From Octopus vulgaris (taxonomy: Eukaryota), in assembly GCA_951406725.2 (NCBI GenBank), contig OX597814.1, positions 189,720,001 through 189,784,000 of the forward strand: 64,000 bases of DNA, given 5' to 3'. The number at the start of each line of letters is the position of its first letter. Position 1 is the first letter of the stretch. Positions 11,091-32,638 of the stretch are shown one piece after another. A program made the translations under genes and the position numbers. A model generated the notes under the pieces. It was not told where the DNA came from, ran no database searches, and saw only the letters and a list, made by a program, of their open reading frames with translations.

Positions 11091-11992
11091 GAAAGATTAA
11101 ATATAAAACATATAACGATGATTAAGTAATGTGCAAAATAATAAATAAAACGTATATATTTGGTAGAATAACGACACGTGTTTCGTAGCTATATTTAAGG
11201 TATGATAATAGTAAAAATAATAGTAGTAGTAGTAAAATCACTTCAATATAAATATAGTCACTCTTCAGGTTAAAGATAACAACAATAATAAAATAATTAA
11301 TTAGATAAATTAATAAACATACGTAAATAATCTTGTAAAATACGAAATATTTTAACAAATATATTCTTGTTTAAAAAATAAGATGCAATTAATTAAAATA
11401 TTTTATATATATATATATGGCGGTGCCCCAGCATGGCCACAGCTCATAAGCTGAAACTGGAATCAATCAATCAATCAATATAAGATACAAAATATACATT
11501 AAGGGAAAACTAAATACAACACTTTAAACTATATACATTAAATCAAATTATTAATATATTTATTTAATAAACATCCAAATAAAGTCTAATACCTATTAAG
11601 CAATTTATACTAAAAACCTTAATGTTAGGTAATATACACAATGCTAGTACAAGCCATAAATTCTGAAATTAAAAATAGGAAATGTTTCAAATATACACAT
11701 ACCCATTATATAAACTAACAATATTATTAATATATATGTAGTATCTATAGATTTAATATTTCACTCAATAATATAAATGACCAAAATATCAATTAATATG
11801 AAACTAATTTACTTAAATGTAATACTACGTAATAAATATACCACCTAATTATTAAATAATGTATTGTCTAACAAACCTAATTTTCAAATTAGATTATATG
11901 TAATACGTTAAATCCCTTTATAAAAATAATAATAAAGCATACTAAATAAATAGATATCATAACTAATAACTATGAAGAAACTATATATAAAA

Positions 11993-31097: not shown

Positions 31098-31324
31098 TTG
31101 GGGGAATTTCGAACCTGGATTCTCATTCCTAAGATTTTTTCGTCGTCGTCGTTGTTGTTGTTGTTGTCCATTTGTATTATGTAGGTAGAGTTAGAGTCCC
31201 AGTTGTATCCTCTTGAAGCACACCTGCTTCTTCTAGTTTACCAGTTCCGCATGTAGATGTGAGGTATGCATAAGAGTTGAAAATTCTGCAAATATTATCT
31301 GCAGCGCAATTTATATATCAAATC

Positions 31325-31549
31325 GGGAGATTGGGAAATAATTTTTCTTCGTATTATTTATTCACCATTACATATGTTTCATTTGCTAATAGGAGTTACG
31401 AAATTGTATATATAGGATAACCATGTTAGGATTCCCCTATTAGAATTTCTCCAGACAAAGAACCAAATAAAACAAATTTACCAAAGCAGGAGATCGGAAG
31501 CATTTTTTCTTCGTATTATTTATTCACCATTACATCTGTTTCATTTGCT
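31325..31549 (+). repeat. Local ~162-bp tandem duplication; the second unit is split by the tRNA-SINE insert and resumes at 32101-32170
   Basis: TTTTTCTTCGTATTATTTATTCACCATTACAT.TGTTTCATTTGCT at ~31342 and ~31504. ATTTGCTA.TAGGA.TTACGAAATTGTA.ATATAGGATAA at 31381 and 32101. Confidence 0.85.
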
Positions 31550-31970
31550 CTTACTCTCTTTTACTCTTGTACTTCTTTCAGTCATTTGACTGTGGCCATG
31601 CTGGAGCACCGACTTTAGTCGAGCAAATCGACCCCAGGACTTATTCTTTGCAAGCCTAGTACTTATTCTATCGGTCTCTTTTGCCGAACCGCTAAGTTAC
31701 GGGGACGTAAACACACCAGCATCGGATGTCAAGCGATGTTGGGGGTGGGGGGACAAACACAAACACACAAACACACACACACATATATATATAATATATA
31801 TATACATATATACAACGGGCTTCTTTCAGTTTCCGTCAACCAAATCCACTCACAAGGCTTTGGTCGACTCGAGGCAATAGTAGAAGACACTTGCCCAAGG
31901 TGTCACGCAGTGGGACTGAACCCGGAACCATGTGGTTCGTAAGTAAACTACTTACCACACAGCCACTCCT
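31550..31970 (-). mobile_element. SINE family B, near full length, fused downstream of tRNA-Ile
   Basis: Minus strand starts AGGAGTGGCTGTGTGGTAAG and ends in the (AGAGTAA)n-like tail at 31550. Confidence 0.9.
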
Positions 31971-31981
31971 AAAAAAATAAA
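31971..31981 (-). terminator. Pol III oligo(T) terminator of the tRNA trailer
   Basis: GTGGTCTTTATTTTTTT follows the discriminator base on the minus strand. Confidence 0.75.
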
Positions 31982-31987
31982 GACCAC

Positions 31988-32100
31988 TGCCCCGGGTGAG
32001 GATCGAACTCACAACCTCCGCATTTCTTCAGACCTGTGAATTAACACAAAGAAGGTACTGTCTATAAGTACGGCGCGCTAACCGATTGTGCTACCGGGGC
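31988..32100 (-). tRNA. tRNA-Ile-TAT: tRNA-Ile(TAT) with a 39-nt intron (32024-32062); probably a retroposed copy
   Basis: GCCCCGG TA GCAC AATCGGTTA GCGC G CCGTA CT TAT A [intron] A TGCGG AGGTT GTGAG TTCGATC CTCAC CCGGGGC A. The mature cloverleaf is 74 nt, the intron sits at the canonical 37/38 position, and there is one D-stem mismatch. Confidence 0.93.
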
Positions 32101-32234
32101 ATTTGCTAGTAGGATTTACGAAATTGTACATATAGGATAAACATGTTAAGGTTGACCCACTTAGAAATTCAATAGTTTCTGCAGAATAGTCTTAATGGCA
32201 AAAATTTCAATTCCTTGACTGACATAATATAGAT

Positions 32235-32638
32235 ACTCTACTCTCTCTCTATTACTTGTTTCAGTCATTTGACTGCGGCCATACTGGAGCACCGCCTTTA
32301 GTCGAGCAAATCGACCCCGGGACTTATTCTTTGTAAGCCCAGTACTTATTCTATCGGTCTCTTTTTGCCGAACCGCTAAGTTACGGGGACGTAAACACAC
32401 CAGCATCGGTTGTCAAGCAATGCTAGGGGGACAAACACAGACACACAAACACACACACACATATATATACATACATATATACGACAGGCTTCTTTCAGTT
32501 TCCGTCTACCAAATCCACTCACAAGGCATTGGTCGGCCCGGGGCTATAGCAGAAGACACTTGCCCAAGATGCCACGCAGTGGGACTGAACCCGGAACCAT
32601 GTGGTTTGTTAGCAAGCTACTTACCACACAGCCACTCC
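32235..32638 (-). mobile_element. SINE family B, full length
   Basis: Same head, internal microsatellite and tail as 27269-27705. Confidence 0.9.

Follow-up and report, generated by a model that had tools for sequence, protein, structure and literature searches.

In the standard model, SINEs arise when the reverse transcriptase (RT) of a LINE switches template onto a tRNA; the evidence for this event usually comes from families that are already established (PMC5729268, PMC4476161). Chimeras of small RNAs with retroelements have been described in a number of animals. Doucet et al. (2015) reported U6/L2, U6/Mon-1, U6/AnolisSINE2 and U6/RTE chimeras in platypus and anole; target site duplications (TSDs) of 1-9 bp were present in 72.5% of 40, and the chimeras were ascribed to template switching (PMC4476161). 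Suh et al. (2017) described the passerine PittSINE and TguSINE1, in which a tRNA head is carried on a CR1 tail, and proposed that the CR1 RT had switched from SINE RNA to tRNA (PMC5729268). For human U6/L1 chimeras, Moldovan et al. (2019) described joining of a 2′,3′-cyclic phosphate to a 5′-OH by RtcB (PMC6789731). Human tRNA/L1 chimeras, known from 21 loci, consist mostly of antisense tRNA halves (bioRxiv 10.1101/2025.02.02.635956). Tailless or pre-tRNA retropseudogenes were described by Schmitz et al. (2004), as cited in PMC4476161 and PMC2912911, and the crocodilian SINEU-2 gains 5′ extensions by template jump or switch (Kojima 2015; PMC4494074).

Here we describe a chimera of an unspliced pre-tRNA-Ile(TAT) and a SINE in Octopus vulgaris, together with its relatives in the same genome. 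As in platypus and anole, a Pol III RNA, often 5′-truncated, stands in sense orientation before a short LINE tail or the SINE of a stringent LINE (PMC4476161). The vertebrate chimeras, however, contain U6 and number in the tens, whereas those of octopus contain pre-tRNAs of many isotypes, number roughly 200 or more, involve several partner families and retain intron, leader and trailer; U6 chimeras are also present in octopus (PMC4476161). The founding chimera of PittSINE and TguSINE1 was inferred from an amplified family, whereas in octopus the unamplified products are visible and the terminator is retained (PMC5729268). In human U6/L1, a Pol III RNA is likewise joined to a retroelement through its oligo(U) end, but human L1 is poly(A)-primed, unlike the hairpin-tailed system of octopus (PMC6789731). 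Retrotransposition of tRNA by LINE machinery, with TSDs, is common to the octopus loci, the human tRNA/L1 chimeras (bioRxiv 10.1101/2025.02.02.635956) and the tailless or pre-tRNA retropseudogenes; unlike the octopus chimeras, the tailless copies lack a partner, and most are 3′-truncated (PMC4476161, PMC2912911). SINEU-2 also records independent, repeated addition of small RNAs to a SINE 5′ end, but the additions are U1-derived, in 26 copies, and are not tRNA precursors (PMC4494074). Searches of openly available article texts yielded no description of a class of sense chimeras between pre-tRNAs and LINE tails, and the term 'chimer' does not occur in the accessible main text of an O. vulgaris repeat annotation (PMC13282606). 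The mechanism class is already known from U6.

Structure of the insertion and its target site

The chimera lies in a window of 64,000 nt (G000:C1:189720001-189784000) from a 2.8-Gb assembly of 227 contigs. On the minus strand, the cassette comprises 551 bp: a tRNA-Ile(TAT) including a 39-nt intron, a trailer, T7 and 421 nt of a SINE, here called SINE B (Table 1). An initial annotation, made from the letters of the window, had the insert run from tRNA +1 through intron, trailer and oligo(T) to the SINE tail, and its coordinates were confirmed. The trailer including the T-run reads GTGGTCTTTATTTTTTT (31987-31971, minus strand), placing the chimeric junction at 31971/31970. The tRNA portion (31988-32100) matched Rfam RF00005 with 50.9 bits (E 2.6e-9). 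ARAGORN called no gene at this position with its intron mode off; with introns on and a lowered threshold, it recovered the gene but mislabelled it Ser(TGA). With both promoter boxes, the anticodon, the intron and the terminator kept, the focal copy could be a working tRNA gene.

Table 1. Features of the focal cassette and its surroundings (window coordinates)
Feature	Position	Strand	Evidence
tRNA-Ile(TAT) 5′ exon, +1 through anticodon and base 37	32063..32100	-	Rfam
tRNA intron, 39 nt; 38/39 identical to resident L002 and L003 (G000:C9:48.02 Mb)	32024..32062	-	
tRNA-Ile(TAT) 3′ exon; one T-loop change relative to nearest resident gene	31988..32023	-	
3′ trailer GTGGTCTTTA (genomic) and T7 Pol III terminator, without CCA	31971..31987	-	
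SINE B, 421 nt, begins AGGAGTGG; head 6-8 nt short	31550..31970	-	
SINE 3′ tail: hairpins and GAGTAAAA-type repeats; homologous to 3′ end of resident APE/RT LINE	31550..31616	-	
TSD copy at SINE 3′ end, CATTTGCT; last two bases also match SINE tail repeat	31542..31549	+	
TSD copy at tRNA 5′ end, CATTTGCT; C32100 doubles as tRNA G+1	32100..32107	+	
Host repeat, left half of interrupted copy	31483..31549	.	
Host repeat, right half of interrupted copy	32108..32170	.	
Host repeat paralogue, uninterrupted; one ATTTGCT at 31381-31387	31321..31449	.	

The direct join to the head of SINE B, as initially annotated, is real, but the head itself is incomplete. The commonest 5′ end among other SINE B copies is ATAGGCGCAGGAG, relative to which the focal copy is either without 8 nt or minus 6 nt between two AGG. 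The focal SINE diverged by 4.5% from the majority sequence of 54 fetched copies, the median of which was 4.1%; this divergence indicates that the SINE is younger than the duplication of its host repeat. The focal junction is single-copy in the genome. Stand-alone copies of SINE B, with 88% and 84% identity to the focal one, are also present in the window at 32239-32638 and 27270-27707, respectively.

The insertion interrupts a dispersed repeat with 46 matches in the genome. The empty paralogous unit that had been recognized upstream, with one ATTTGCT and no insert, aligned to the joined focal flanks with 111 of 130 columns identical and gaplessly at the insertion site. All 20 of the other repeat copies that were fetched are uninterrupted, 17 having exactly one ATTTGCT and three a variant, and the ancestral state of the site was therefore empty. 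The host repeat is about 280 bp long and MITE-like, with inverted arms (window 31321-31449 and 31483-32170; L195-L213).

The annotated duplicate, (C)ATTTGCT, is present on both sides of the insert. Its exact length can be defined only as 5-8 bp due to microhomology at both joints, TG at the tRNA end and AG at the tail: C32100 is also G+1 of the tRNA, and the AG also fits the SINE tail. As one TSD bounds the tRNA and the SINE and the site is empty in paralogues, both parts were inserted together at this locus. These data, with the many siblings of the same build described below, uphold the initial reading of a single chimeric retrocopy. Single-step insertion is proven at the focal locus, not for most siblings. 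The further claim that the pre-tRNA had been 5′-matured is unproven: bases T-1 and G+1 of the 5′ joint are common to tRNA and target, and are thus no proof of RNase P processing, and siblings retain a leader.

Matches in contigs of other samples (X1, X3, X5, X12) were dominated by SINE contigs. Among the pieces listed from X1, X2, X3 and X5, none crossed 32100/32101, and the unique flank past 32147 was nearly uncovered. In X1, the sequence of the 3′ exon plus trailer was present without any difference, and X3 and X5 contained similar pieces, the visible portion ending before the downstream sequence. Empty-form ends in X2 and X3 represent the dispersed host repeat and were left out as orthologues.

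Resident genes and chimeras across the genome

A search with the pre-tRNA-Ile(TAT) yielded 41 matches at 40 loci, all of which were inspected. Fourteen loci are resident-like: they are intact, have no partner, and several form clusters on C9 and on C4. Ten of these 14, but not the focal copy, were flagged for a TA-rich motif upstream. Consistent with the initial view that the focal tRNA is not a resident gene, its flank is a split dispersed repeat, resident genes have another 5′ flank and no SINE, and the flank from 32101 onward is absent from all 39 other Ile(TAT) loci. By contrast, the D-stem variant put forward as diagnostic of the focal copy, GCAC, proved to be the normal form, occurring in 13 of the 14 resident-like genes.

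Two resident genes, L002 and L003, are identical to the focal pre-tRNA at 111 of 113 nt, the differences from the nearest resident gene being one intron base and one T-loop base, the latter private to the focal copy and at pre-tRNA position 99. Their trailer differs from the focal one. No resident gene with that trailer was found in the assembly within one mismatch; the three matches of the trailer search were the focal copy, an unrelated sequence and a fragment of another chimera. Clear source genes were found for sibling chimeras, such as L010/L009 and L017/L011. Inside the resident cluster, a rearranged Ile(TAT) (G000:C9:48022582-48022732; L002:2601-2751) has a duplicated anticodon-intron piece and a SINE B joined without a T-run.

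The missing exact source would be compatible with Pol III read-through of a gene that already carried the SINE, the composite transcript then being retrotransposed, and in some chimeras the tRNA part does continue beyond an initial T4 as far as another T-run (L025). At the focal locus, however, T7 separates the two parts. Moreover, one source trailer occurs with different partners and junctions, the resident genes examined have no SINE at this position, and in the one multi-copy chimera tested the copies have common flanks, that is, they reflect a segment duplication. We consider read-through hardly probable.

In 21 of the 26 non-resident Ile(TAT) loci, the 3′ end of the tRNA adjoins a retroposon, in nearly every case by way of a T-run; 12 of the 21 were flagged by script and nine by eye, and they include one duplicate pair and the rearranged copy that lacks a T-run. 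Three of the remaining loci are 3′-truncated and two are without partner. Judged by their introns, the chimeric copies derive from five or more types of resident gene; a leader of 4-5 nt is retained in some. An unbiased count was obtained for tRNA-Glu: among the matches listed (100 of 126 exact 3′ ends), a partner was seen by eye in 51 of 61 outside the C10 cluster and in none of the 39 inside it. With about half of the tRNA-Glu 3′ ends among the matches listed being chimeras, tRNA gene counts are inflated in such genomes. The C10 cluster (G000:C10:81.83-81.97 Mb) contains at least 39 tRNA-Glu(TTC) 3′ ends with varied trailers. U6 had a partner in 22 of 30 fetched copies, from 48 matches.

Exact-pattern searches for a T-loop motif followed by a LINE-type tail, a SINE B head or a SINE A head gave 131, 93 and 54 matches, respectively. 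Only a minority of siblings have a clear TSD. Of the first 30 loci per set, a tRNA reference was matched by 28 (LINE tail) and 24 (SINE B), where the references include the tested loci themselves and two matches (L093, L102) cover the T-arm only. A control with reversed patterns gave 0 matches; it was considered too weak, and an antisense control took its place. In this control, the T-loop motif followed by an antisense SINE tail gave 66 matches, by eye almost all due to chance. Of two such loci that were fetched, one has no tRNA; at the other, L174, a SINE in antisense follows a resident tRNA-Ser and represents a true sequential insertion. Overall, we estimate that the genome contains about 200 or more independent chimeras, a lower bound since exact patterns were used. 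The focal locus, initially treated as a rarity, thus belongs to a large class.

The chimeras have the features of precursors. Neither a spliced Ile(TAT) copy nor a CCA-ended tRNA-Glu copy was found in the genome, indicating that the template was the precursor. Partners are in sense orientation, lie 3′ of the small RNA and supply the 3′ tail. The tRNA is 5′-truncated in at least 11 of 28 tail chimeras, as expected for retrocopies, and the length of the T-run at the junction varies widely. A non-repetitive TSD of at least 8 nt was present in 4 of 44 chimeras (null 1.7%), and one of at least 6 nt in 13 of 44 (null 13%). Many chimeras are located in microsatellites, and stand-alone SINEs, inspected by eye, are mostly without a clear TSD too.

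Such frequent absence of a clear TSD from elements of this system, and the SINE behind a resident tRNA terminator at L174, are points in favour of an origin in two steps, whereby a lone pre-tRNA retrocopy made the TSD and a SINE later landed exactly between T-run and TSD. Few copies stand alone with an intact 3′ end, however (2 of 23 non-resident Ile(TAT) loci), and none of the 39 Glu cluster genes among the matches listed has an element inserted behind it. TTTT occurs within 12 nt upstream of only 3 of 31 stand-alone SINE B heads, and the SINE of L174 is antisense, whereas those of the chimeras are sense. Two separate insertions are very unlikely to have produced the focal cassette.

Partner elements and formation of the chimeras

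The hairpin tail belongs to a LINE encoding Exo_endo_phos and RVT_1 domains. The feature set of this LINE is that of the CR1 group, with an APE endonuclease, an RT and a 3′ tail of hairpin plus microsatellite; its RT motifs are presumably also of the CR1 group, to which the element would then belong. A homologue search named no clade, one match being a crane protein with 34% identity. Assignment of the partner to RTE or Dong-R4 was dropped once the sequence of the hairpin-tailed LINE had been read, and a ribozyme reading of the 60-nt tail was dropped after inspection by eye. The analogy to L1 that had been drawn at the outset does not apply: the partner system, an APE/RT LINE whose tail forms a hairpin, is not L1-like.

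SINE B is homologous to the LINE only over its final ~55 nt. Among the 6,125 LINE tail matches, the first 100, classified by eye, comprised 44 with LINE body, 17 with the body of another SINE, one short LINE stub, 33 bare tails and 3-5 preceded by a Pol III RNA. The bare tails, about a third among the matches listed, are inserts of ~60 nt that start just before the hairpin and often lie in (TA)n; one is at window position 11418. In bare tails, chimeras and SINE families alike, LINE homology starts a few bases before the same hairpin; for SINE B and a second SINE family, the transition to the LINE tail coincides with the joint of tail-only chimeras. The partner ends of chimeras fall mostly at two places, the SINE 5′ end and a point 3-5 nt ahead of the LINE hairpin; at the latter, about a third of stand-alone LINE tails among the matches listed also stop. 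At least two further partner families occur among the chimeras. The SINE may resemble the octopus element OR2; a CORE-SINE carries a CORE domain behind its tRNA head. OR2 has been listed as a CORE-SINE of octopus (PMC4758252).

From these sequence features, the chimera was probably made by template jumping of the LINE RT, with the oligo(U) 3′ terminus of a nascent pre-tRNA as acceptor. Target-primed reverse transcription would begin on the SINE or LINE tail, with the SINE tail repeat priming via the AG microhomology. Having reached the 5′ end of the SINE RNA, or a point slightly beyond the hairpin, the RT would stop there and continue on a nuclear pre-tRNA or U6, entering at its free oligo(U) end; the transfer may be helped by pairing of untemplated A's with the U's. 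The 5′ joint would close on the TG microhomology. The scarcity of clear TSDs among the chimeras, the missing exact source gene and the sequential insertion at L174 weigh against this account. Pol III SINE RNAs begin with a triphosphate and pre-tRNAs end in U-OH. For the R2 RT, untemplated addition is mostly of A's and jumping is best with a +1/+2 overhang, an overhang of three or more A's being described as non-productive for jumping in vitro (PMC8857657).

The initial annotation had offered template switching or RNA ligation, on the model of U6/L1; template jumping fits, and RtcB ligation fits worse. Ligation of the pre-tRNA to SINE or LINE RNA by RtcB or another ligase, followed by retrotransposition, has a precedent demonstrated in human U6/L1 (PMC6789731), and U6 chimeras are common in the octopus genome too. 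The constant position of the junction, 3-5 nt ahead of the LINE hairpin, might reflect cleavage that leaves a 5′-OH. Since the focal SINE head is 6-8 nt short, its 5′ end could be a cleaved 5′-OH end, which argues against jumping. RtcB, however, fails on a 3′-OH donor or a 5′-triphosphate acceptor (PMC6789731). In addition, the joint lies at the complete 5′ end of many partners, the length of the junction T-run is highly variable, and no splice-site-half junction was evident in the 41 Ile(TAT) matches, one rearranged copy aside. On balance, ligation at the RNA level is unlikely.

Template jumping was also weighed against DNA repair, in which an unfinished SINE 5′ end would have captured a separately made pre-tRNA cDNA. 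The microhomology at the 5′ joint and the 5′ truncation of many tRNA parts are consistent with such capture, and twin priming has been invoked for the human tRNA/L1 chimeras (bioRxiv 2025.02.02.635956). Twin priming yields antisense pieces, however, while those of octopus are sense and end at the natural 3′ end of the RNA. Capture during repair is the least probable of the explanations considered.

Two unusual configurations were observed. At G000:C10:71093237-71093443 (L179; also L097 and L098), two tRNA-Asp/SINE B chimeras are arranged head to head and share an inverted tRNA centre, an arrangement for which fold-back or double priming is possible. Further, a tRNA-like RNA ending in GCCAACAC and a T-run forms chimeras with all three partner types (L104, L176-L178).

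Fate of the chimeric copies

The raw products of the proposed step of SINE birth are present in numbers, and the substrate is the unspliced precursor with its trailer, not the mature tRNA. As intron and trailer link many copies to their source gene, the capture rate, the junction chemistry and the role of the terminator are measurable. We tentatively suggest, as a possibility that is open to considerable doubt, that proto-SINEs and mobile tRNA genes are continually being generated in this genome. LINE RTs would routinely capture nascent pre-tRNAs, and the same hairpin junction might be where SINE families acquired their tail. The terminator carried along could act as a filter on which chimeras become founders of a family, and intact copies, the focal one included, may constitute new, expressed intron-bearing tRNA genes.

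A dimeric SINE family, with one junction in different flanks, was evident neither for the single-copy focal junction nor for the eight fetched Glu/SINE B repeats. The latter, from C28, C31 and C16, had been considered as an amplified composite family, which was rejected: all eight share more than 1.2 kb of flank and thus represent a duplicated segment. In this segment, one tRNA-Glu/SINE B chimera occurs at least eight times (L166-L173), with flanks 96-99.8% identical.

Introns were also seen outside Ile(TAT). Loci L100/L131 (G000:C8:23304052), L132 (C17:75138770), L130 (C21:10400303) and L102 (C9:95037215) comprise tRNA-Met(CAT) copies with an intron of ~21 nt and an intron-bearing tRNA-Lys(TTT)-like copy. 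Intron-bearing Met(CAT) and Lys(TTT)-like tRNAs fall outside the usual set of intron-bearing isotypes in vertebrates.
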